DNA of 64,000 nucleotides from Mustelus asterias (taxonomy: Eukaryota). Positions within the stretch are counted from its first letter, which is position 1. Every line of letters begins with the position of its first letter. A model generated the notes under the pieces. That model was not told where the DNA came from. It did not search any database and worked only from the letters and a program-made list of their open reading frames with translations. Made by a program: the position numbers and the translations under genes. Location of the stretch: contig NW_027590160.1 in assembly GCF_964213995.1 (NCBI RefSeq), forward strand, positions 1-64,000, given 5' to 3'. Shown in pieces: positions 5,067-63,372 of the stretch.

Positions 5067-5996
5067 ATGAGTGTGAAACCAGTGTGCTGTTCCCAGTGTA
5101 GGATGTGGGAGGTCCTGGAGGCATCTGGCCTCCCGGACATCCACATCTGTGAGGGGTGTGTCGAGCTGCGGTTCCTGAGGGACCGTGTTAGGGAGCTGGA
5201 ACTGCAGCTCGAGGATCTTAGGCTGATGAGGGAGAATGAGGAGGTGATAGACAAGAGCTATCATCAGGTGGTCACACCAGGGCCACGGGAGGAGGCCAAG
5301 TGGGTGACGGCCAGGAAGGGTAAGGCTAGGGTGGTTGAGAGCACCCCGGTGGATTTGCCCCTGCACAACAAGTACTCCTGCTTGAGTACTGCTGGGGGGG
5401 ACAGCCCGCCTGGGGGAAGCAGCAGTGGCCGTGTCTCCGCAGTGGAGTCCAGCCCTGTAACTCAGAGGGCTAAGGAAAAGAGGAGGAAGGCGGTATTAAT
5501 CGGGGACTCGATGGTGAAGGGGACAGACAGGCGTTTCTGCGGAGGTAGGCGGGATTCTCGCATGGTGGTCTGCCTCCCTGGGGCCGGGATCCAGGATGTC
5601 GCTCGTCGCGTCCCGGAAATCCTGAGGTGGGAGGGAGAGGAGCCTGAGGTAGCGGTACATATTGGTACCGCTGATGTGGGTAGGAAGGGAGAAGGGGTCA
5701 TGAAAAAGGAGTACAGGGAATTAGGGAGACAGCTGAGAAAGAGGAAAGCAAAGGTAGTAATCTCAGGATTACTGCCTGTGCCACGGGAAGGTGAGGGCAG
5801 GAATGGAGTGAGGTGGAGGATGAATGTGTGGCTGAGGGACTGGTGCAGGGGGCAGGGATTCAGGTTCCTGGACCATTGGGACCTCTTTAGGGGCAGGGGT
5901 GATCTGTATACAAAAAACGGGTGGAACTTGAATCACACGGGGACCAATATCCTGGCCGGTAGGTTGGCTAAGGCTACTGGGGAGAATTTAAACTAG
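5067..5996 (+). CDS. CR1 ORF1p (zinc finger/coiled coil plus SGNH-esterase-like domain)
   Basis: CSQC...CEGC motif, leucine-rich heptads, LIGDSM, HIGTAD, ISGLLPVP motifs. Confidence 0.9.
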   Translation: MSVKPVCCSQCRMWEVLEASGLPDIHICEGCVELRFLRDRVRELELQLEDLRLMRENEEVIDKSYHQVVTPGPREEAKWVTARKGKARVVESTPVDLPLHNKYSCLSTAGGDSPPGGSSSGRVSAVESSPVTQRAKEKRRKAVLIGDSMVKGTDRRFCGGRRDSRMVVCLPGAGIQDVARRVPEILRWEGEEPEVAVHIGTADVGRKGEGVMKKEYRELGRQLRKRKAKVVISGLLPVPREGEGRNGVRWRMNVWLRDWCRGQGFRFLDHWDLFRGRGDLYTKNGWNLNHTGTNILAGRLAKATGENLN

Positions 5997-6001
5997 ATAG
6001 G

Positions 6002-9000
6002 TTGGGGGGAGGGGAGCTAGAAGAGTTGACCAGGATCAAGGAACTAATTGATGGGGGGGAGGATGCAGGGGTAAGGGGAATTACAAAATTAATGGTAGAG
6101 GAGAGGGTGCAAGTGAATGAAGGCGGTAATTTAGAAAAGGGAGTAGAGGGAGAGGGTGTTCGCGACTCATCAAAGCGGGTCCAGATAAAAGCTGGAATAA
6201 GGACACTTTGCCTGAATGCACGAAGCATTCGGAACAAGGTAAATGAGTTGATGGTGCAAATCAGCACAAGTGGGTACGATCTAGTGGCCATTACAGAAAC
6301 GTGGCTGAAAGGTGACCAGGACTGGGAGATGAATATCCAGGGGTATCAGGCGTTTAGGAAGAATAGACAGGAAGGAAAAGGTGGTGGGGTCGCGCTATTA
6401 ATAAGAGATAATATCAGGGTAGTACTGAGGGATGACATAGGCTCTGAGGAACAAAACGTGGAATCATTATGGGTAGAGATGAGGAATAGTAGAGGGAGAA
6501 AGACACTAGTAGGTGTGGTATATAGGCCCCCAAATAATAATGTTGAGGTAGGGAGGGCTATAAACAAGCAGATAAGGGATGCGTGTAAAAACGGAACGGC
6601 AATAATCATGGGGGACTTCAACATGCACATTGACTGGCAGACTCAAGTCAGTAAGGGTGGAATGGAGGAAGAGTTCTTAGAATGCTGTCGGGATAGTTTC
6701 CTTGAACAGCATGTTACGGAACCGACGAGGGAACGAGCTATTTTGGATCTGGTATTGTGTAACGAGGTAGGTAGAATTAAGGATCTTATTGTGAAGGACC
6801 CTCTTGGGTCTAGTGACCACAATATGGTCGAATTTCTGATTCAGATGGAAGAGGAGAAAGTTTGGTCCCAAACCAGTGTCCTCTGTTTGAACAGAGGGAA
6901 ATATGATAGGATGAGGGATGAATTGGCTAAGGTAGACTGGGAGAGCAGGCTGGCAGGTAGGATAGCTGAGGAACAGTGGAGGATTTTTAAGGAGATCCTT
7001 TTCAGTTCTCAGCAAAAATATATTCCAGCAAAAAACAAGGATTGTAAGAAAAGGGAGAACCAGCCGTGGACAACGAAGGAAATAAAGGAGAGTATTAAAA
7101 TAAAAACAGCTGCGTACAGAGTGGCCAAAAATAGTGGAGAAACAAGTGATTGGGAAAAATTTAAGAAACAACAAAGAGAGACTAAGAAAGCGATAAAGAA
7201 AGGAAGGATAGACTATGAAGCTAGGCTAGCAATTAATATAAAAAATGATAGTAAAAGTTTTTATAAATATATAAAAAGGAATAGAGTGGCTAGAGTGAAT
7301 GTTGGACCCTTGGAGGACGAGAGGGGGGAGTTAATAGTGGGAAATGAGGATATGGCTGAGTCTTTAAATAAGTTTTTTGTGTCGGTCTTCACGGTGGACG
7401 ACACAAATAGTTTGCCAAATATTAACGATAGAGGGTTGGCAGCAGGAGAAATACTTAATACAATTAATGTTACCAGAGAGGCAGTGCTGGGTAGACTAAT
7501 GGGACTGAAGGTGGACAAGTCCCCGGGTCCGGATGGAATGCATCCCAGGGTATTGAAAGAAACGTCAGAGGTAATAGAGGATGCGTTAGTGATTATTTAT
7601 CAAAACTCGTTGCATTCTGGGGTAGTGCCGGTTGATTGGAAAACGGCTAATGTTACGCCGCTGTTTAAAAAAGGAAGGAGACAAAAGGCGGGTAACTATA
7701 GGCCGGTCAGCTTAACGTCTGTAGTAGGGAAAATGCTGGAATCCATTATTAAAGAGGAGATAGCAGGGCATCTGGATAGAAATGGTTCGATCAATCAGAC
7801 GCAGCATGGATTCATGAGGGGAAAGTCGTGCTTGACGAACATGTTGGATTTTTATGAAGATGTGACTAGGGCGGTTGATGGAGGAGAACCGGTGGATGCG
7901 GTGTTTTTGGATTTCCAAAAGACGTTTGATAAGGTGCCCCATAAAAGGCTGCTGAAGAAGATTAGGGCACACGGAGTTGGGGGTAGTGTGTTAAAGTGGA
8001 TTGGGGACTGGCTATCCGACAGGAAGCAAAGAGTCGGAATAAATGGGTGTTTTTCCGGTTGGAGGAAGGTAACTAGTGGCGTGCCGCAGGGATCGGTACT
8101 CGGGCCGCAACTGTTTACCATTTATATAGATGATCTGGAGGAGGGGACGGAGTGTAGGGTAACGAAGTTTGCAGACGACACAAAGATAAGTGGAAAAGTG
8201 AATCGTGTGGAGGACGGAGAAGATCTGCAGAGAGATTTGGACAGGCTGAGTGAGTGGGCGAGGATATGGCAAATGGAGTATAACGTTGAGAAATGCGAGG
8301 TTATACACTTTGGAGGAAATAATAACAAATGGGATTACTATCTCAATGGAAACAAATTAAAACATGCTACCGTGCAAAGGGACCTGGGGGTCCTTGTGCA
8401 TGAGACGCAAAAGCCCAGTCTGCAGGTACAACAGGTGATCAAGAAGGCAAATGGGATGTTGGCCTATATTGCGAGGGGGATAGAATATAAAAGCAGGGAT
8501 GTCTTGATGCACCTGTACAGGGCATTGGTGAGACCGCAGCTGGAATACTGTGTGCAGTATTGGTCCCCTTGTATGAGGAAGGATATATTGGCATTGGAGG
8601 GAGTGCAGAGAAGGTTCACCAGGTTGATACCGGAGATGAGGGGTTTGGATTATGAGGAGAGGCTGAGGAGATTGGGTTTGTACTTGTTGGAGTTTAGAAG
8701 GATGAGGGGGGATCTTATGGAGACTTATAAGATAATGCAGGGGCTGGATAGGGTGGAGGCGGAGAGATTCTTTCCACTTAGTAAGGAAGTTAAAACTAGA
8801 GGACACAGCCTCAAAATAAAGGGGGGTCGGTTTAAGACAGAGTTGAGGAGGAACTTCTTCTCCCAGAGGGTGGTGAATCTCTGGAATTCTCTGCCCACTG
8901 AGGTGGTGGAGGCTACCTCGCTGAATATGTTTAAAGCGCGGATGGATGGATTCCTGATCGGTAAGGGAATTAAGGGTTATGGGGATCAGGCGGGTAAGTG

Positions 9001-9007
9001 GTACTGA
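6002..9007 (+). CDS. CR1 ORF2p (APE endonuclease and reverse transcriptase); true start uncertain
   Basis: LNARS, ITETW, GDFN, SDH (APE); QHGF, PQGSVLGP, FADD (RT); uninterrupted about 1000 aa; first ATG at 6092; frame open back to 5972. Confidence 0.93.
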   Translation: MGGGELEELTRIKELIDGGEDAGVRGITKLMVEERVQVNEGGNLEKGVEGEGVRDSSKRVQIKAGIRTLCLNARSIRNKVNELMVQISTSGYDLVAITETWLKGDQDWEMNIQGYQAFRKNRQEGKGGGVALLIRDNIRVVLRDDIGSEEQNVESLWVEMRNSRGRKTLVGVVYRPPNNNVEVGRAINKQIRDACKNGTAIIMGDFNMHIDWQTQVSKGGMEEEFLECCRDSFLEQHVTEPTRERAILDLVLCNEVGRIKDLIVKDPLGSSDHNMVEFLIQMEEEKVWSQTSVLCLNRGKYDRMRDELAKVDWESRLAGRIAEEQWRIFKEILFSSQQKYIPAKNKDCKKRENQPWTTKEIKESIKIKTAAYRVAKNSGETSDWEKFKKQQRETKKAIKKGRIDYEARLAINIKNDSKSFYKYIKRNRVARVNVGPLEDERGELIVGNEDMAESLNKFFVSVFTVDDTNSLPNINDRGLAAGEILNTINVTREAVLGRLMGLKVDKSPGPDGMHPRVLKETSEVIEDALVIIYQNSLHSGVVPVDWKTANVTPLFKKGRRQKAGNYRPVSLTSVVGKMLESIIKEEIAGHLDRNGSINQTQHGFMRGKSCLTNMLDFYEDVTRAVDGGEPVDAVFLDFQKTFDKVPHKRLLKKIRAHGVGGSVLKWIGDWLSDRKQRVGINGCFSGWRKVTSGVPQGSVLGPQLFTIYIDDLEEGTECRVTKFADDTKISGKVNRVEDGEDLQRDLDRLSEWARIWQMEYNVEKCEVIHFGGNNNKWDYYLNGNKLKHATVQRDLGVLVHETQKPSLQVQQVIKKANGMLAYIARGIEYKSRDVLMHLYRALVRPQLEYCVQYWSPCMRKDILALEGVQRRFTRLIPEMRGLDYEERLRRLGLYLLEFRRMRGDLMETYKIMQGLDRVEAERFFPLSKEVKTRGHSLKIKGGRFKTELRRNFFSQRVVNLWNSLPTEVVEATSLNMFKARMDGFLIGKGIKGYGDQAGKWY

Positions 9008-9489
9008 TCCACGTCAGATCAGCCATGATCTTATTGAATGGCGGGGCAGGCTCGAGGGGCTAGATGGCCTACTCCTGCTCCTATTTCTTATGTTCTTATG
9101 TTCTTATAAGGATGATAAAGTCTGGGTTCTGATTCTCATGTAGAACTAACAAAACGAATGAATCAGTTTATAAAGAACAGAAGTGACCCATCCCTAACAA
9201 AAACTGATCAAATTAAAATAATTCGGTTGAGGAAGAAAACAAAAAGAATAATAGATGAAGTTTAAAATTAAGATTGTTTTGTTGTTAGAGATTTTTTAAA
9301 TTATGTAAAGTGATGTAATTGTGTGCCAAGTTTTTTTCTGCTCACTCCCCACCCCTTTAGGTTCAGTAGAAAAGTTAATTTGTTTTTAAATCGCCCGGAA
9401 ACTTATGTCTATTTTGCTTTATAATTGAGGATTTATGGGAACCAGTTAAATGTGGAAATTTTAAGCATAGCCACTAAGACCATATTTGC

Positions 9490-18196: not shown

Positions 18197-18829
18197 GAAA
18201 TACATTGGGAGAATTGCTGTTTTAATGGGTATTTTCACAAGTGCTATAAAATGATTTTTCAAAACAAATTAATATTTTCTTCAACAGATGATTAATAAAT
18301 AAAAAGTATTTAATAAAACAACCACCCAGTGTGGGGTTCAGGATTCTAACCCACGGTTTCTGAGCTCCAGGAACCACTAACTGAACCAGCCGGGAATGGT
18401 CTCCACAAAACTTCCCCAACTCCCTCCCGGGAAAAAGCTGCAAACCCGGGAGCTGCAGCTTTTTACTGGGGGTGTTGGGGCCTCCAGCGGGTGTTTGTGA
18501 ATCCTCCCCGCCCACCTCCCAGGGTTTCCTTCCTTCCCAGAGATCAGAGTCCTCATTGATTTGAGGCCAAAGTGTAACCTCTTATTTATTGTCCCCCTCC
18601 CCCATCCTCTGATGTGAACCATCCTCCAATGGCTGAGCCAGGATGGGGCCGTTAACCTGGGCCTGTTCCCGGGAGGGAGGGAGGGAGAAGCCCCGCAGCT
18701 GCAAACCAGGGAGCTGACAATGATTCTGAAGGGTTTGCGGATCCACAAAGTGTTTCCAAATCCTCCCAGCCACCGCCTAACGCTGACTCCGCTTCTCCGG
18801 GACAAACAAGCGCCAAGGACAGCAGTGAC

Positions 18830-18980
18830 ACTGCGCATGCTCCACATCACAATGCCCGGGGACTGATTGACGGCAGCTCGGACCAATAGGAAGAGGGGGC
18901 GGGGCTGGAGGACCGAGCGGGAGCGGCTGGTCCTCCAACCAATCGGAGTGAATGGGGGGCGCGACCTGAAGCATGCGCAG
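18830..18980 (-). promoter_or_regulatory. Promoter cassette type I (CCAAT x2, GC box, NRF1-like sites, 9-bp inverted repeat)
   Basis: CCAAT, GGGGCGGGG, GCATGCGCA and TGGAGGACC-n14-GGTCCTCCA; six copies in the window. Confidence 0.7.
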
Positions 18981-19250
18981 TGCCGGTAATGGCGACGGAT
19001 GGATGGTTTTGACTCGGAACCGAGATCAATACGAGGTAGAGGGCGGCGTGCGGGGAATGATAAATGTGGCGGGTGGGTGGAGAGACTTTGTAAACATGTT
19101 GTTCAAACCCAAACCCCGGAAATGAACTTCCCGGTTCCCCCCCTTTGTACCCAATGGAGCGGCAGCTTGTAGTGTTAGACCCGGGCTGACTGCCGCCATT
19201 GAGGCTGCATGTGGGAGGCCGGCAGGGATTGTGATCGGAGAGTGAAGCCC

Positions 19251-19410
19251 TGACGTCACAATGGAATGGGTGAGGGTGTGACATCACAATGGAATGGGTG
19301 AGAGTGTGACATCACAATGGAATGGGTGAGAGTGTGACGTCACAATGGAATGGGTGGGAGTGTGACGTCACAATGGAATGGGTCGGAGTGTGAGGTCACA
19401 ATGGAATGGG
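19251..19410. repeat. 28-bp tandem repeat (about 5.7 copies) carrying CRE-like TGACGTCA/TGACATCA
   Basis: Unit TGACGTCACAATGGAATGGGTGAGAGTG. Confidence 0.9.
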
Positions 19411-38662: not shown

Positions 38663-38934
38663 ATGTAGAACCAGAAGAGAGTAGCCCCACCCAGCTGGAC
38701 GACAGTGGAGAGGGATGGAGCAGAATGATGTGGGCGACCTTGCCAAAGGCTGCAAATAGGTCGAGGATAAAAAGGGAAAGTTCATTTTTGTTGCAGTCAC
38801 ATAGGATGTCAGTGCGGACTTTGATAAGAGCTGTTTCAGTAATGTGGCAAGGCAGAAACCTGATTGAAGAATTCAAATATGGAGTTCTGGGAAAGATGGC
38901 CTTGGGTTTTGGGAGAAGGCAAAACATTCAGAAT

Positions 38935-39470
38935 GAATGAGGGGGCGGGGCTGGAGGACCGAGCGAGAGCGGCTGGTCCTCCAACCAATCGGAGTGAATG
39001 AGGGGCGGGGCTAAGGGCCAGTTGCGCTGTGGTGATCTGGAGCATGCGCAGTGCCGATCACTGGGGATTGAGGCGGTTGCGGAAATATTCAGTCCGGGCG
39101 ATAACACCGGGTAAATCAGGAATGAGTGATGGAGCCGGTGGGTGGGCGGACTTCGAGGCTTCATAAAAGTCCCGTGGAGGCCGCAAGCCCCCAATAGGAA
39201 GCTCGGATTCGATATTTGAACCGTTGAAAGGTTGTTCGGGCTTTTCCCCCGATTCAGGCCCGGGTGAACGACCGCCATCTTGACAGTGTGCGGCCGAGCG
39301 CACGCGCAGACAGAGGGAGCTCCATGCTCAGCCCCCTCCGCCCCGATTCAGTCTGATTGGTTGGAGGACCAGCCGCTTGTGCTCGGTCCTCCAGCCCCGC
39401 CCCCTCCTCCTATTGGTCCGGAGCTGCCGTCAATCAGCTCCCGGGCATTGTGATGTGGAGCATGCGCAGT
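38935..39470. promoter_or_regulatory. Two type I cassettes in inverted orientation flanking an NRF1/YY1-containing spacer
   Basis: Minus cassette 38935-39012; GCATGCGCA at about 39042; CCGCCATCTT at about 39272; plus cassette 39345-39470. Confidence 0.65.
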
Positions 39471-41069
39471 GTCATTGCTGTCCTTGTCCCGGAGAAGCGG
39501 AGTCAGCGTTAGGCGGTGGCTGGGAGGATTTGGAAACACTTTGTGGATCCGCAAACCCTTCAGAATCATTGTCAGCTCCCTGGTTTGCAGCTGCGCGGCT
39601 TCTCCCTCCCTCCCTCCCGGGAACAGGCCCAGGTTAACGGCCCCATCCTGGCTCAGCCACTGGAGGATGGTTCACATCAGAGGATGGGGGAGGGGGACAA
39701 TAAATAAGAGGTTACACTTTGGCCTCAAATCAATGAGGACTCTGATCTCTGGGAAGGAAGGAAACCCTGGGAGGTGGGCGGGGAGGATTCACAAACACCC
39801 GCTGGAGGCCCCAACACCCCCAGTAAAAAGCTGCAGCTCCCGGGTTTGCAGCTTTTTCCCGGGAGAGAGTTGGGGAAGTTTTGTGGAGACAATTCCCGGC
39901 TGGTTCAGTTAGTGGTCAATGAAGCTCAGAAATCCTGAGTCAGGATCCTCATTGGGTGGTTGTTTTATTAAAATATTATTATTCATCTGTCGAAGAAAAT
40001 ATTAATTTGTTTTGAAGAATCATTTTTATAGCGTTTGTGAAAATGTCCATTAAAATAGCCGTTTTTCCAATGTATTTCTGATGAGAATTTTAATATTACT
40101 GATTTGGGAATTGATTCTCGGGAATGGTCATTCTGAAAATGATTATGTTTTAATTTACTCCATAATGCCAGAAGTCAGTTTGTATTTCAAATGTAATTTA
40201 GAATGTCTGGGAGCAAATGTTAAAATGAGGTTTGAGACACCAGCTGCCATTACTTCCTGTGACTGATGATACCTTTGTGCCTGTGCAGGAGGTAATTCCC
40301 CTGGTGCTGTGGCACAAATAAAATGGAGCCTTTCCTCGGAACAGGTCCGTGTTAACGGTCACCGTGTTGTTTCAGTGGTGAGCAGGGGACGTGTGGCCAT
40401 TGTGGTAACAACAGAGTCGGTGGAACTTCATGTCCCCTGACCTTAAAAGAAAATAATTGACTCCTTGGTTGTACAGTCAATCTGCACATGATCTGGAGAA
40501 CTGAATCCAGCCAGAGTGACAAGGCAGAGGGAGCTGGTCTCAGAGTGGAGACATGAAATGGTGGAGATGGGGCAAGGAGTTTGATTTAGACCAGGGACAA
40601 GAGAGAGTGTGTGGGATGGAGATTACAGCTCAAGATAAATGAGATGAAGAAGTGTTCCATGGAAACTCGAATTGTCTGTTATGAATTAGTTTTTTAAGCT
40701 CTTTTTGCAGGGAACTAGAAGAGGAGGATTCACAGACAGGAAACTCAAACTAAACTTCAGGTCAAGGTCTACAGAACCATTTGATTCATCATGACCTCAG
40801 TATGATTGCTTTTTACAGTGGAGGGAGAAATCATTGCCTGTTTTGTCAGTGGAAGAAAATTTTAAAAATTCAATGTGGCAGAAAAAGACCCGAGACACAC
40901 ACCCCCGAGTGAGAGTGTTCCAGTGAACTGACTGAAAAGAGCTTTAACCGGTTACACAGCCTGAAAAAAATCACACCATTCACAGTGAGAAGAAACCATA
41001 AACGTGGTCCGTGTGTGGATAAGGCTTCAACTGATCATCCAACCTGGAGAGACACAAGGTCACCTGCAC

Positions 41070-47997: not shown

Positions 47998-48921
47998 ATG
48001 TCAGTGCAGGCAGTGCAATGTTCCTCCTGTGGGATGTGTGAGGTGAGGGACACCATTAGTGTCCCAGCTGAGTACACCTGCAGGAAGTGCACCCAATTCC
48101 AGCTCCTTGAAGACCATGTTAGGGATCTGGAGTTGGAACTGGATGAACTCAGGATCATTCGGGAGGCAGAGACAGTTATAGATAAAAGCTACAGGGAGGT
48201 TCATACTCCTAGGAATGAGGATACTTGGGTGACTGTTAGAAAGGGTAAGAAGCAGACAGTGCAGCGATCCCCTGTGGCCGTTCCTCTGTATAACAAGTAT
48301 ACCGTTTTGGATACTGTTGGGGAGGGCGACTTACCAGGGGTAAGCCATGGGGTACAGATCTCTGGCACAGAGTCTGTCCCTGTTGCTCAGAAGGGAAAGG
48401 GGGGGAGGAGTAGAGCATTAGTCATTGGGAACTGCATAGTTAGGGGGACAGATCGGAGATTCTGTGAGAGCGAGAGGGACTCGCGGCTGGTGTGTTGCCT
48501 CCCAGGTACCAGGGTCTTTGATGTCTCGGATCGTGTTTTCAAGATCCTTAAGGGGGAAGGGGACCAGCCCCAAGTTGTGGTCCACACAGGCACCAATGAC
48601 ATAGGTAGGAAAAGAGATGGGGATATAAGGCAGAAATTCAGGGAGTTAGGGTGGAAGCTTAGAGCGAGAACAAATAGAGTTGTTATCTCTGGTTTGTTAC
48701 CCGTGCCACGTGCTAGTGAGGAGAGGAATAGGGAGAGAGAGCAGTTGAACACGTGGCTACAGGAATGGTGCAGGAGGGAAGGATTTAGATACCTGGATAA
48801 TTGGCGCTCATTCTGGGGTAGGTGGGACCTCTACAAACGGGATGGTCTTCACCTGGACCAGAGGGGTACTAATATCCTGGGGGGGAAATTTGCTAATGCT
48901 CTTCGGGAGGGTTTAAACTAA
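47998..48921 (+). CDS. CR1 ORF1p (zinc finger plus SGNH-esterase-like domain)
   Basis: CSSC...CRKC, GTND, DGLH; the GDS motif reads GNC. Confidence 0.85.
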   Translation: MSVQAVQCSSCGMCEVRDTISVPAEYTCRKCTQFQLLEDHVRDLELELDELRIIREAETVIDKSYREVHTPRNEDTWVTVRKGKKQTVQRSPVAVPLYNKYTVLDTVGEGDLPGVSHGVQISGTESVPVAQKGKGGRSRALVIGNCIVRGTDRRFCESERDSRLVCCLPGTRVFDVSDRVFKILKGEGDQPQVVVHTGTNDIGRKRDGDIRQKFRELGWKLRARTNRVVISGLLPVPRASEERNREREQLNTWLQEWCRREGFRYLDNWRSFWGRWDLYKRDGLHLDQRGTNILGGKFANALREGLN

Positions 48922-51800
48922 TTCGGCAGGGGGGTGGGAACCTGGATTTCTGCTCCAGTGTACAGGAGGATGTGAGTGGTGAGGTGATGAATAAGATTTC
49001 AAGGTCGCAGGAGTGTACCGGCAGGCAGGAAGGTGCTTTGAAGTGTGTCTACTTCAATGCCAGGAGCATCCGGAATAACGTGGGTGAACTTGCAGCATGG
49101 GCTGGTACCTGGGACTTCGATGTTGTGGCCATTTCGGGGACATGGATAGAGCAGGGACAGGAATGGTTGTTGCAGGTTCCGGGGTTTAGATGTTTCAGTA
49201 AGATCAGGGAAGGTGGTAAAAGAGGAGGAGGTGCGGCATTGTTAGTCAAGGACAGTATTACGGTGGCAGAAAGGATGTTAATGAGGACTCGTCTACTGAG
49301 GTAGTATGGGCTGAGGTTAGAAACAGGAAAGGAGAGGTCACCCTGATGGGAGTTTTCTATAGGTCTCCGAAAAGTTCCAGAGATGTAGAGGAAAAGATTG
49401 CAAAGATGATTCTGGATAGGAGCGAAAGTAACAGGGCAGTTGTTATGGGGGACTTTAACTTTACAAATATTGACTGGAAATGCTATAGTTCGAGTACTTT
49501 AGATGGGTCAGTTTTTGTCCAATGTGTGCAGGAGGGTTTGCTGACACAGTATGTAGATAGACCAACAAGAGGCGAGGCCACATTGGATTTGGTACTGGGT
49601 AATGAACCAGGCCAGGTGTTAGATTTGGAGGTAGGTGAACACTTTGGTGATAGTGACCACAATTCGGTTACGTTTACTTTAGCAATGGAAAGGGATAGGT
49701 ATACACCGCAGGGCAAGTATTATAGCTGGGGGAAAGGAAATTATGATGCGATTAGGCGAGATTTAGGATGCACAGGATGGGGAAGAAATCTGTAGGGGAT
49801 GGGCACAATTGAAATGTGGAGCTTGTTCAATGAACAGCTACTGCGTGTCCTTGATAAGTATGTACCTGTCAGGCAAGGAGGTAGTGGTCGAGCGGGGGAA
49901 CCGTGGTTTACTAAAGAAGTTGAATCTCTTGTGAAGAGGAAGAAGGAGACTTATGTAAAGATGAGACGTGAAGGCTCAGTAAGGGCGCTTGAGAGTTACA
50001 AGTTCGCCAGGAAGGAGCTGAAGAGAGAGCGAAGAAGAGCCAGGAGGGGACATGAGAAGTCTTTGGCAGGTAGGATCAAGGAAAATCCTAACGCTTTCTA
50101 CAGGTATGTCAGGAATAAAAGAATGACTAGGGTAAGATTAGGGCCAGTCAAGGACAGTAGTGGGAAGTTGTGCGTGGAGTCTGAAGAGATAGGAGAGGCG
50201 CTAAATGAATATTTTTCGTCAGTATTCACACAGGAAAAAGACAATGTTGTCGAAGAGAATACTGAGATACAGGCTATTGGACTAGACGGGATTGAGGTTC
50301 ATAAGGAGGAGGTGTTAGCAATTCTGGAAAGTGTGAAAATAGATAAGTCCCCTGGGCCGGATGGGATTTATCCTAGCATTCGCTGGGAAGCTAGGGAGGA
50401 GATTGCAGAGCCTTTGGCTTTGATTTTTATGTCATTGTCTACAGGAATAGTGCCAGAAGACTGGAGAATAGCAAATGTTGTCCCCTTGTTCAAGAAGGGG
50501 AGTAGAGACAACCCTGGTAATTATAGACTGGTGAGCCTTACTTCTGTTGTGGGCAAAGTTTTGGAAAGGATTAGAAGAGATAGGATTTATAATCATCTCG
50601 AAATTAATAATTTGATTAGGGATAGTCAGCACGGTTTTGTGAAGGGAAGGTCGTGCTTCACAAACCTTATTGAGTTCTTTGGGAAGGTGACCAAAGAGGT
50701 GGATGAGGGTAAAGCAGTTGATGTGGTGTTTATGGATTTAAGTAAAGCATTTGATAAAGTTCCCCACTTTAGGCTATTGCAGAAAATACAGAGGCATGGG
50801 ATTGAGGGTGATTTTGAGATTTGGATCAGAAATTGGCGAGCTGTAAGAAGACAGAGGGTGGTGGTTGATGGGAAATGTTCATCCTGGAGTTCAGTTACTA
50901 GTGTACCGCAAGGATCTGTTTTGGGGCCACTTTTGTTTGTCATTTTTATAAATGGTCTGGATGAGGGCGTAGAAGGATGGGTTAGTAAATTTGCGGATGA
51001 CACTAAAGTCGGTGGAGTTGAGGACAGTGTGGAAGGATGTTGCAGGTTACAGAGGGACATAGATAAGCTGCAGTGCTGGGCTGAGAGGTGGCAAATGGAG
51101 TTTGATGTGGAAAAGTGTGAGGTGATTCACTTTGGAAGGAGTAACAGGAATACAGAGTACTGGGCTAATGGTAAGATACTTGGTAGTGTGGATGAGCAGA
51201 GAGATCTCGATGTCCATGTGCATAGATCCCTGAAAGTTGGCACCCAGATTGATAGGGTTGCTAAGAAGGCGTACAGTGTGTTAGCTTTTATTAGAAGAGG
51301 GATTGAGTTTCGGAGCCATGCTGTCATGTTGCAGCTGTACAAAACTCTGGTGCGGCCGCACTTGGACTATTGCGTACAGTTCTGGTCGCCGCATTATAGG
51401 AAGGATGTGGAAGCATTGGAAAGGGTGCAGAGGAGATTTACCAGGATGTTGCCTGGTATGGTGGGAAGGTCTTATGAGGAAAGGCTGAGTGACTTGAGGC
51501 TTTTTTCGTTGGAGAGAAGAAGTTTAAGAGGTGACTTAATAGAGGCATTCAAGATGATCAGAGGATTAGATAAGTTGGACAGTGTAAGCCTTTTTCCTCG
51601 GATGATGATGGCTAGCACGAGGGGGCATAGCTTTAAATTGAGGGGTGATAGATATAGATCAGATGTCAGAGGTAGGTTCTTTACTCAGAGAGTAGTAAGG
51701 GTGTGGAATGCCCTGCCTGCAACAGTAGTGGACTCGTCAACATGAAGGGCATTTAAAGGGTCATTGGATAAACATATGGATGAGATTGGAATAGTGTAGG
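48912..51800 (+). pseudogene. Disrupted CR1 ORF2 (APE-RT)
   Basis: FNARS...; frameshift near 49290, stop at 49793-49795, premature TGA at 51743; FADD present. Confidence 0.88.
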
Positions 51801-60647: not shown

Positions 60648-61610
60648 AGAACCACAGAACATTACAGCACAGAAACAGGCCATTTGGCCCTTCTTGGCTG
60701 TGCTGAGCCACTTTTCTGTCTAGTCCCACTGACCTGGACCATATCCCTCCACACCCCTCTCATCCATGTACCTGTCCAAGTTTTTCTTAAATGTGAAAAG
60801 TGAGCCCGCATTCATCACCTCATCTGGCAGCTCATTCCAAACTCCCATCACTCTCTGTGTGAAGAAGACCCCCACTAATATTCCCTTTAAACATTTCCCC
60901 CCTCACCCTTAACCCATGTCCTCTTGTTATTTTCTCCCCTAGCCTCAGTGGAAAAAGCCTGCTTGCATTCATTCTATCTATACCCATCATAATTTTATAC
61001 ACCTCTATCAAATCTCCCCTCATTCTTCTACGCTCCAGGGAATAAAGTCCTAACCTTTCTCTGTAACTCAGTTTCTCAAGTCCCGGCAACATCCTTGTAA
61101 ACCTTCTCTGCACTCTTTCAACCTTATTAATATCCCTCCTGTAATTAGGTGACCAAAACTGCACAAAATACTCTAAATTCGGCCTCACCAATGTCTTATA
61201 CAACCTCACCATAACATTCCAACTCCACACACAGCCCTTCTATTTGTGATTTTGCATGAACTATTAACATCATTTATTTTCACCCCAGCTCCACTGTCTG
61301 CTCTGGCACTCTGGTTCCCATCCCCCTGCAAATCTAGTTTAAACCCTTCCCAAGAACACTCGCAAACCTTCCTGCAAGTATATTGGTCCCCTTGTAGTTC
61401 AGGTGTAACCCATCTCTCTTGTACAGGTCCCACCTGCCCCAGAAGAGGTTCCAATGATCTAGAAATCTGAAACCCTGCCCCCTACACCAGTTCCTCAGCC
61501 ACGTGTTCATCCACCTGAGCATCCTACTCTTACCCTCACTGGCACGTGGCACAGGTAGCAATCCTGAGATGACTACCCTCGGGGTCCTGCTTTTTAACTT
61601 CCCACCAAGT
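60648..61610 (-). mobile_element. Internally deleted CR1: ORF1 C-terminus and ORF2 start joined to the ORF2 C-terminus and tail
   Basis: 61334-61610 VVISGLLPVP...DGLHLN...GLN*; 60832-61230 LYKTLVRPNLEY... Confidence 0.85.
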
Positions 61611-61652
61611 TGTTCCTTTGTAGTCACTGATATTTAACTGATATTCCTTTAT

Positions 61653-62019: not shown

Positions 62020-62575
62020 AGCCCCGCCCCCATTCACTCTGATTGTTGGAGGACCAGCCGCTCCCGCTCGGTCCTCCAGCCCCGCCCCCTTTTCCTTGGT
62101 CCGGAACCGCTGTCAATCACTGTCCGGTCATTGTGATGTGGAGCATGCGCAGTGCCGCTGGGAGCTCAGGATTGCGGCGGTGGGAATTTTCAGCGGATCC
62201 GACGCCGCCGGGTGGGGAATGAGGGGGGGATGGAGCCGGCGGGTGGGTAATGAGGGGGGGATGGAGCCGGGGGGTGGGTTCGAGGCTTCATAAACACCCC
62301 GTGTCGGCCCCAAGCACCGAATACAAAGCTCGGGTGCGGGTTGTGAAGCGGGGAAATCAGCTCCCGCTTTTCCCCGGAACAGACCCAGAATCCCCGCCGC
62401 CGTCTTTATCGGGAGCCTCTCCGGCTCGGCGCATGCGCACTGAGGAAGCATCGAGCGAGGCTCCTCCCCTCATTCACTCCGATTGGTTGGAGGACCAGCC
62501 GCTCCCGCTCGGTCCTCCAGCCTCGCCGCCTCTTCCTATTGGTCCGGACCTGCTGTCAATCACCCCGGGGCATTG
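62020..62575 (+). promoter_or_regulatory. Two direct type I promoter cassettes (unit 9)
   Basis: Cassettes at about 62020-62155 and 62465-62575; GCGCATGCGCA at about 62429. Confidence 0.65.
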
Positions 62576-62679
62576 TGAGGTGGGCGGGGAGGATTCACAA
62601 ACACCCGCTGGAGGCCCCAACACCCCCAATAAGACCCATTGGTTTTATTGTCAGTCTGCAGACAGGAGCTGGAGAACTG

Positions 62680-62817
62680 TTCACAATAAGAAGTCTCAAC
62701 ACCAGGTTAAAGACCAACAGGTTTATTTGGTAGCAAATGCCATAAGCTTTCAGAGCGCTGCTCCTTCGTCAGATGGAGTCTGTGTTCACCCCAGTCCAAC
62801 GCCGGCATCTCCACATC
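62680..62817 (-). mobile_element. 138-bp Penelope-type insertion with 7-bp target-site duplication
   Basis: AGAACTG at 62673-62679 and 62818-62824; single AGAACTG in the paralog at 27831-27837. Confidence 0.75.
62740..62776 (-). ncRNA. Minimal type I hammerhead ribozyme motif
   Basis: Minus strand CCAT-CTGACGA-A-GGAGC(AGC)GCTCT-GAAA-GCT-T-ATGG. Confidence 0.65.
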
Positions 62818-63372
62818 AGAACTGAACACAGGCAGAGGAGAGGGAGGGAGAAAACTGGGGGTGGAGGAAAGAAATGGTAGAGATGGGTTTGGATTTCAGC
62901 CCAGGGAGGAGGGAGAGTGTGTGGGATGGGGATTTCCAGATTTGGGGGAACAAGAGAGGAAAAAATGTTCCAGAGAAACTAGAATTGTCTGTTCAGAATT
63001 TCTATCCTGGACTGACGGTGATGACTTTTGTAAACTCTTTTTACGGGATCTTAGAAACGATGATTGCAGATGGGAAACTCAAACCAAACTTAAGTTTGAC
63101 AGTCAGTTGGTTCATCATGACCTGAATATCATCACCTTTGAGGTTGAAAGGATAATTGTTCGTTTGTTCTGTCTGAGGGAAAATATTTTAAACATCAGTG
63201 TTACTGGAAAAGCACCAAGAGACACACGCACAGCTGAGTGAGAATGTTCCAGTGAACTGATTGCAGAAAGAGCTTTAACCAGTTCCACAGCCTGATAAAA
63301 CATCACACCATTCACAGTGTGGACGAGCCTTCAACTAATCATCCAACCTGGAGAGACACAAGGACACCGGCA

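Follow-up and report, generated by a model that had tools for sequence, protein, structure and literature searches.

A candidate programmed -1 ribosomal frameshift at the ORF1/ORF2 junction of CR1 retrotransposons

CR1 retrotransposons very probably make ORF2 mainly by programmed -1 ribosomal frameshifting at the end of ORF1, which would yield an ORF1-linker-endonuclease-reverse transcriptase fusion. In the mechanism that we propose, the majority of ribosomes would decode UUA AAC and halt at the next codon to give ORF1p (about 35 kDa for the intact element described below, copy 1). For a minority, the Leu-tRNA and Asn-tRNA on U_UUA_AAC would re-pair one base back and bypass the stop codon, and the shifted ribosomes would cross a variable linker to enter the endonuclease and reverse transcriptase region. 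This would yield a single protein of 1,313 aa and about 150 kDa in copy 1, which we presume to be the active enzyme. Pfam searches found no protease domain in ORF1 or ORF2, so the fusion may stay whole. The slip is probably aided by the adjoining stop codon and by a G-run 10 nt downstream, without a local stem.

How LINEs translate ORF2 is a long-standing question, and its answer is usually drawn from the unusual reinitiation of L1. If CR1 frameshifts as proposed, its reverse transcriptase would be joined to the esterase protein in a fixed proportion, much as in gag-pol, the annotated ORF2 starts of these CR1 families would be wrong, and the junction would have to be retained in engineered CR1 assays. 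A junction cassette of roughly 60 nt makes the proposal directly testable, and the G-run, for which no pairing partner is conserved, could represent a novel type of stimulator. According to the cited passages of two sources, no interspersed repeat of chicken is more abundant than CR1 (PMC11835228), which is also the major LINE of reptiles (PMC6609765). No report of a CR1 frameshift emerged from the literature available to our search, which did not extend to Haas 1997, Kajikawa 1997, Kapitonov and Jurka 2003, or the supplements of PMC3905857, whose lists of esterase elements may be relevant to earlier notice.

Junctions of three CR1 copies in the window

The window, the whole 64,000-nucleotide stretch of Mustelus asterias DNA that was analysed, holds three CR1 copies that retain the junction (Table 1). 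We assign these elements to the CR1-clade LINEs, judging from their architecture and from ORF1 relatives in named vertebrates. Pfam domains comprise Lipase_GDSL_2 in ORF1 and Exo_endo_phos plus RVT_1 in ORF2. CR1-clade elements end in a 3' stem-loop and short terminal repeats without poly(A), and this arrangement is present in the window CR1. Copy 1 alone is intact. The ORF2 of copy 2 is broken, with a frame break near 49270 and more beyond, and copy 3 is, from its structure, an internal deletion or a chimera. The three belong to different CR1 families, with 61-68% identity across the 75 nt 5' of the heptamer and 51% identity between the ORF1 proteins of copies 1 and 2. Neither copy 1 nor copy 2 yielded a convincing target-site duplication, and an Rfam search matched only a tRNA.

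Table 1. Features of the three CR1 copies in the window
Feature	Position	Strand	Remarks
Copy 1 ORF1	5067..5996	+	309 aa; N-terminal Cys motif; ends Leu-Asn-stop
Copy 1 SGNH/GDSL esterase	about 5553-5912	+	C-terminal in ORF1
Copy 1 ORF2 frame	5972..9007	+	1,011 codons between stops; -1 relative to ORF1
Copy 1 slippery heptamer, T_TTA_AAC	5987..5993	+	
Copy 1 linker	5993..6214	+	-1 frame open until first conserved Asn of endonuclease (6215)
Copy 1 ORF1 stop codon (TAG)	5994..5996	+	Abuts 3' end of heptamer
Copy 1 G-run	6004..6014	+	G6 then G4; candidate stimulator
Copy 1 APE endonuclease	about 6248-6820	+	
Copy 1 reverse transcriptase	about 7673-8320	+	
Copy 1 3' UTR	9008..9107	+	Predicted stem-loop; short terminal repeats
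Copy 2 ORF1	47998..48921	+	307 aa; Leu-Asn-stop end
Copy 2 ORF2 remains	48897..51793	+	Linker and endonuclease start in -1 frame
Copy 2 slippery heptamer	48912..48918	+	Followed by TAA stop
Copy 2 G-run	48929..48938	+	Spacing as in copy 1
Copy 3 ORF2 3' part	60726..61224	-	From about residue 841; joined to linker
Copy 3 G-run	61315..61326	-	Starts at 61326; spacing as in copy 1
Copy 3 ORF1 3' end	61334..61612	-	Heptamer 61343-61337; TAG stop 61336-61334

The original prediction placed T-TTA-AAC-stop at all three ORF1 ends, and its coordinates are exact (5987-5996, 48912-48921 and 61343-61334). It was also right that the heptamer is phased X_XXY_YYZ in the ORF1 frame, with the -1 frame of ORF2 reading F-K-L across it, and that a G tract lies downstream, which begins 10 nt past the heptamer in every copy (6004, 48929 and 61326). 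The heptamer alone occurs at 34 places on both strands of the 64-kb window; the heptamer followed by TAR occurs at three, precisely the three ORF1 ends found by tblastn. Layout and the conservation described below support the predicted ORF1-ORF2 fusion by -1 frameshifting, and the pseudoknot stimulator that accompanied it is not supported.

Conservation of the candidate slip site

The original prediction named as a refutation the loss of the heptamer through synonymous changes in other CR1 families; we applied this test, and it did not refute the prediction. We retrieved 82 loci without using the heptamer, either by an upstream esterase motif or by a whole-ORF1 profile, and set aside 25 identical to counted loci, 18 that fell short of the last esterase motif and 3 that ended before the junction. 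Among the 36 scored, TTTAAAC is unaltered in 30, at a constant distance from the last esterase motif (one shifted by a deletion), and the other six are three changed CR1-type copies and three loci from other esterase clades. Exact heptamers are thus found in 30 of 33 CR1-type junctions, a count that ignores relatedness and draws about half of its loci from one family. Judged from these loci, the T-TTA-AAC-stop site is clade-wide in CR1, and ORF2 is 38-45% identical over 900+ aa among three types that include the shark and the bird/reptile-type elements.

Protein ends carry a further trace of the first base of the heptamer. The residue before a terminal LN is E, Q, K, M or W in one of 45 representatives of 50% clusters, compared with 15% at adjacent positions (p 0.005). 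In pooled tails, a pre-terminal residue unable to end in T precedes LN in 1/61 cases and GN, the ending of a separate clade, in 16/18, a contrast fitting what U_UUA_AAC and G_GGA_AAC would respectively predict, with GN represented by protein ends only. KN protein ends are compatible with A_AAA_AAC. Of 89 representatives, 28 have an ending other than LN, GN, KN, EN, SN or FN. All three heptamers are among the most shift-prone on mammalian ribosomes, as stated in the cited part of PMC5009743.

The linker and other explanations for ORF2 expression

An ATG in the -1 frame 5' of the heptamer is absent in 24 of 27 junctions, and in 14 that frame closes within six codons 5' of it. The endonuclease motif is reached in frame in 16 of the 27 (one with a stop), the others being cut or decayed. 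Of the junctions that reach it, we picked 11 for examination of their linkers, which span 38-90 codons, and in all 11 the -1 frame has no stops and each other frame has 1-12. Stop-codon readthrough was ruled out by the 1-12 further ORF1-frame stops in the linker. Two families (L003, L037 and L039) have their first in-frame Met 14 codons past the conserved endonuclease Asn, a residue that an alignment search of the PDB places at the L1 endonuclease's first strand (the single-sequence PDB search gave no match). One of these loci, L037, is intact, with 365 open codons in ORF1 and 962 in ORF2. The original prediction had named dependence of ORF2 output on the downstream ATG alone as evidence against it, and the AUG-less families remove this route as a general mechanism.

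Termination-coupled reinitiation, an explanation that we consider unlikely, would have ribosomes terminate after ORF1 and then resume translation in the -1 frame from an AUG or non-AUG codon close by, as has been proposed for L1, to make free ORF2p, with the conserved bases as its signal. An in-frame ATG stands 2 nt past the stop in five bird/reptile-type loci (L001, L004, L005, L013 and L032) and the stop and start codons overlap in L025. A short stop-to-start spacing is not conserved: it is present in 5-6 bird/reptile-type loci and absent elsewhere. The in-frame ATGs that had been pointed out at 6092 and 48987 are indeed present in copies 1 and 2, but they are preceded by out-of-frame ATGs (6051 and 6063 in copy 1, 48970 in copy 2), and the position of the first Met is scattered (codon 5, 22, 23, 26 or 36) or the Met is missing. 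Even AUG-less linkers are compatible with reinitiation, since L1 ORF2 translation is thought to be AUG-independent (cited passages of PMC5009743). However, reinitiation leaves unexplained both the X_XXY_YYZ heptamer and the covariation of LN and GN ends with the preceding residue. In some bird-type families, it may yield an additional product.

A second alternative, which we regard as very improbable, is that the slippery appearance is incidental to protein constraint on a C-terminal Leu-Asn of the esterase, or to common ancestry. Vertebrate CR1s are kin, and an identical 26-residue tail is present in 29 of 45 LN-ending representatives. However, in the comparison that the original prediction had called for, codon choice and the preceding T go beyond amino-acid need: nearby conserved Gly and Leu residues use 4-6 codons, whereas the heptamer codons are fixed despite synonymous options, which largely refutes this explanation. 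For the three free choices in T-TTA-AAC, the joint expectation is 0.003-0.043 per lineage. Moreover, the preceding residue is limited by its third base only, LN tails differ in length (25 to 39 aa), the G-run sits past the stop with its Gly codon always GGG (16/16), and a sister esterase clade has nine members with nine different ends. Least credible of all is a DNA or RNA-processing motif (a TATA-like internal promoter with a G-box, a splice acceptor or polymerase slippage) that generates an ORF2 message, for although TTTAAA with a G-rich box behind it looks like parts of a core promoter and the TAG form offers a terminal AG, the TAA form of copy 2 and the TGA form have no such AG, in L003, L037 and L039 an ORF2-only message would have no AUG ahead of the endonuclease, and the motif is tied to the ORF1 frame and stop at a site without a long homopolymer.

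No natural family with ORF1 and ORF2 fused in frame was found in what was a weak search, which returned one unrelated gene model. In two single copies (P0025 and P0030), ORF1 continues into the linker frame, probably through indels.

The downstream element and comparable systems

A stem-loop or pseudoknot is usual, although not universal, 3' of -1 slip sites. Neither a hairpin nor a pseudoknot was retained as the CR1 stimulator, given that nested folding, shuffles and helix listing revealed nothing conserved, and nested folding and helix listing, the two methods applied to the interval 5-9 nt past the heptamer, gave neither structure there. Folding z-scores lie mostly between -2 and +2 and drop below -2 in three of about 75 folding windows. 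The H-type pseudoknot once drawn for copy 2 has helices that exist as sequence, but it is implausible in that form because its 10-bp pairing takes up the whole loop of the 4-bp stem. In a 50-nt fold of copy 2, the 10-bp pairing forms a plain hairpin (z -0.6), and these helices have no counterpart in copies 1 and 3. No conserved pairing partner was found for the G-run, and junctions have G4Hunter-type scores of 0.96-2.40. In copy 1, L037/L042 and L039/L041, the junction pairs with the 3' end of the element better than 99% of other windows do, but when G-matched 30-mers serve as the reference such pairing is favoured only in L037/L042 (p 0.09 for copy 1 and 0.06 for copy 3). It is absent in copy 2, L001 and L013, no family-specific diagonal was found, and we regard it as a lead.

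We tentatively suggest, as a possibility that we hold to be rather doubtful, that an ancient signal composed of the heptamer, the adjacent stop and an unpaired G-run after a 10-nt spacer is common to the CR1 elements of vertebrates and other animals. The G-run might be read by a trans-acting protein (a host G-tract binder or ORF1p), form a G-quadruplex, or engage the stem-loop at the 3' end of the same element, 3 kb away. If true, a chromosomal element would have a natural frameshift under protein, quadruplex or end-to-end control, linking reverse transcriptase synthesis to particle assembly.

The passages cited here describe several systems with which CR1 can be compared. Coronavirus ORF1a/1b, retroviral gag-pol, and luteo- and dianthoviruses (PMC5009743) share with CR1 the heptamer class and phase, a polymerase in the -1 frame, an upstream structural-protein ORF and a downstream element at a fixed spacer, whereas CR1 is a chromosomal non-LTR retrotransposon in which neither a local stem nor a pseudoknot was found. 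For the APE-type LINEs TRE5-A and TRE3-A of Dictyostelium, a -1 frameshift is stated to be necessary for ORF2; they belong to another lineage and host, their ORF1 is unrelated, and the slip site is not given in the cited part of PMC5911963. Penelope-like elements have an optional ORF1 joined to the reverse transcriptase by frameshifting (PMC8557442), as proposed for CR1, and some share its esterase class (PMC3905857), but they form a different retroelement order and their frameshift is pseudoknot-stimulated (PMC8557442). The PRRSV nsp2 -2/-1 frameshift uses a short linear motif 10 nt past the slip site, the same distance as the CR1 G-run, and this motif works across a range of 9-11 nt; it is rich in C, and a known pair of proteins binds it (PMC4937337), whereas protein binding to the CR1 G-run would be hypothetical. 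Mammalian L1 and Zorro3 are, like CR1, bicistronic LINE RNAs whose ORF2 encodes an APE endonuclease and reverse transcriptase, but their ORFs do not overlap and (re)initiation gives a separate ORF2p (PMC5009743, PMC1965478).

Broader scans were also made. Scanning for the pattern G_GGA_AAC returned 46 matches, none of them flanked by 80 open codons on both sides, and DNA of the GN clade was not found; a T_TTA_AAC scan gave 10 matches, none of them CR1 and one of them L089. Among 301 genomes of one order, matches came only from one genome that was already known. In contigs from four runs, the heptamer is untouched among the 40 of 136 differences listed, an observation that we do not use as evidence. 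Viral contigs scanned with alignments of ORF1 yielded no relative. In favour of frameshifting, an unrelated, RNA-virus-like contig carries the same heptamer, stop and G-run before an RdRp in the -1 frame.

Candidate slip-site layout at the CR1 ORF junctions

All three CR1 LINE copies in the window close ORF1 with T-TTA-AAC and a stop codon and carry ORF2 in the -1 frame, at the very sites named in the original prediction. The heptamer TTTAAAC alone occurs 34 times on the two strands of the window, and three of these sites, those that close the ORF1s, are followed by TAR. Each copy belongs to a different family (upstream likeness 61-68%), and ORF1 relatives come from sharks, rays and skates. 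Besides the intact copy 1, there is one copy with a broken ORF2 and one that is internally deleted or chimeric; copy 3 represents either a single deletion or a non-autonomous family. The last esterase motif of copy 1 (5910-5930) lacks the usual Asp and His present in relatives, and because of this its esterase may be inactive even with both ORFs open.

Features of the window and their coordinates
Feature	Position	Strand
Copy 1, intact CR1-type LINE: ORF1 with SGNH esterase	5067-5996	+
Copy 1, ORF2 frame: APE endonuclease and reverse transcriptase (RT)	5972-9007	+
Copy 3, junction: ORF1 3' end and ~110 nt linker joined straight to last ORF2 part	61612-60726	-
Heptamer, copy 1	5987-5993	+
Heptamer, copy 2	48912-48918	+
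Heptamer, copy 3	61343-61337	-
C2H2 zinc-finger ORF cluster, interspersed with many 3' CR1 fragments	2321-63775	
GC-rich repeated cassette	18377-19311, 26884-28209, 38928-39912, 62223-63241	both
tRNA gene match (one)	26291-26363	

Recurrence of the GC-rich cassette was judged by near-identical spurious translations, and the cassette may serve the zinc-finger genes as a common promoter.

Conservation of the heptamer in DNA and protein

Queries with either an esterase motif upstream of the junction or a profile of the whole ORF1 yielded 82 loci, from which we excluded 25 identical over 140 nt to a counted one, 18 without the last esterase motif and 3 that ended too early. Exact TTTAAAC is present in 30 of the 36 scored loci, at 71, 86 or 89 nt from the last esterase motif according to clade, with one exact locus at 48 nt after a deletion. 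The junction is changed in three CR1-type copies (L007, L012 and L057), and the heptamer is absent from three members of other esterase clades (L066, L067 and L075), of which L067 carries an ATG of its own immediately ahead of the endonuclease. One family on animal-like contigs in a bacterial genome bin accounts for about half of the exact junctions; the remainder are bird/reptile-type subfamilies and one further family. Between the shark, bird/reptile and remaining types, ORF2 identity is 38-45%. CR1-type LINEs occur in three bacterial genome bins, G001-G003 (L037-L045, L039, L041); G001 (17.8 Mb) probably holds much animal DNA, given its 30 ORF1 matches.

From ORF2 codon use, T-TTA-AAC is expected by chance at 0.003-0.043 per lineage. 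The codon table takes the heptamer as its anchor, which leaves the 36 scored loci as the unbiased count. Among 18 representatives, the conserved Gly and Leu residues shortly before the heptamer are encoded by four to six different codons, and the ORF1 stop varies (TAG, TAA or TGA). The expectation that the TTA-AAC codons and the preceding T are kept beyond amino-acid need was thus confirmed. Layout and conservation are directly observed, and the slip-site layout is a real, deeply conserved feature. Protein constraint as its cause fits these data poorly and is very improbable, and a promoter or splicing role, fitting as poorly, is more improbable still.

LN closes 22 of 30 close ORF1 relatives; of the other eight, one ends in IN, one has three residues after LN, and six are truncated or shifted. 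A profile search, clustered at 50% identity, gave 150 representatives; 89 of them retain the last esterase motif with a tail of 20-70 residues, and these end in LN (45), GN (9), KN (2), EN (2), SN (2), FN (1) or otherwise (28). Named hosts of LN-ending proteins include a snake, turtles, a swallow, two lizards, a frog and an eel. If U_UUA_AAC sets the end, the residue before LN needs a T-ending codon, and E, Q, K, M and W have none; these occupy it in 1 of 45 proteins versus 15% at the seven preceding positions (p 0.005, ignoring kinship). In a clade ending in X-G-N, X is Q (15), V, K or A, and every one has a G-ending codon, as G_GGA_AAC requires; X is unable to end in T in 16/18 versus 1/61 pooled LN tails, again ignoring kinship. 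Judging from protein alone, the change from LN to GN would reflect a swap of U_UUA_AAC for G_GGA_AAC. A well-supported sister clade of nine esterases (one teleost), taken as putative L2-type, has nine different ends. In seven ORF1 tails (P0203, P0205-P0207, P0121, P0114 and P0141), GF or KN lies a few residues ahead of the C-terminus, as would be expected of G_GGU_UUU or A_AAA_AAC sites set apart from the stop.

Probable frameshifting and possible reinitiation as routes into ORF2

We consider it highly probable that tandem -1 slippage on U_UUA_AAC yields an ORF1-linker-endonuclease-RT fusion beside ORF1p. A minority of ribosomes would bypass the adjacent stop, giving a 1,313-aa fusion and the 309-aa ORF1p; slippage, its rate and its stimulator are what we infer. 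The -1 frame upstream of the heptamer has no ATG in 24/27 junctions and is closed within six codons in 14/27. Downstream, the -1 frame of 16/27 leads into the first endonuclease motif, in 15 of them without a stop; the other 11 junctions are decayed or cut by contig ends. In 11 linkers examined closely (38-90 codons), the -1 frame has no stops and each other frame has 1-12.

Reinitiation is unlikely as the general route, and it may coexist with frameshifting in bird-type families. An in-frame ATG lies 2 nt past the stop in five loci (L001, L004, L005, L013 and L032), and stop and start overlap in L025, which counts against a single mechanism. In L003, L037 and L039, the first Met lies 14 codons past the conserved endonuclease Asn, so that AUG initiation, as predicted from these sequences, cannot yield a whole endonuclease in their families. 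In the L1 endonuclease structure, the motif bearing this Asn aligned to the first strand. Changing a conserved Zorro3 endonuclease Asn, which is probably equivalent, reduced retrotransposition to <5% (PMC1965478).

Frameshifting at the CR1 junction would work as viral -1 frameshifting does, and the sequence features agree except for local structure. Dictyostelium TRE5-A/TRE3-A (PMC5911963) and some Penelope-like elements (PMC8557442) are described as using -1 frameshifts. The available part of a 2016 review (PMC5009743) has no CR1 case, and 'frameshift' is absent from the main text of the esterase structure paper (PMC3905857). While -1 frameshifting itself is known, we found no report of its use by CR1 in a literature search that had early CR1 papers outside its scope and included parts of PMC11835228, PMC4255032, PMC6609765, PMC5006619 and PMC5408684. 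Those early papers may have remarked on the ORF overlap, which we would guess to be possible if somewhat doubtful.

The downstream G-run as candidate stimulator

Counting from the first T, G occupies positions 19-22 in every sequence long enough to cover them (16-17), position 18 in 15/17 and position 15 in 15/18; the run thus begins 10 nt past the heptamer. The pseudoknot proposed for copy 2 did not hold up: it would need all ten loop bases paired, its helices fold as a plain hairpin (z -0.6, 50 nt), and copies 1 and 3 have no counterpart. Folding revealed no conserved local structure at the junctions, and no homologous partner of the G-run was found. Some families favour pairing of the junction with the 3' end of the element and others lack it, with no family specificity, and quadruplex scores are 0.96-2.40. 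A spacer of the same 10 nt precedes the linear motif of PRRSV (PMC4937337). A similar arrangement occurs in an RNA-virus-like contig unrelated to CR1 (L089:991-1100), one of ten matches to a CR1-derived pattern and, because it was found with that pattern, an analogy and not a test. Its 324-codon ORF ends T-TTA-AAC-TAA, an RdRp occupies the -1 frame, and a G6 run spaced as in CR1 makes up the 5' arm of a long local stem (-35 kcal/mol).
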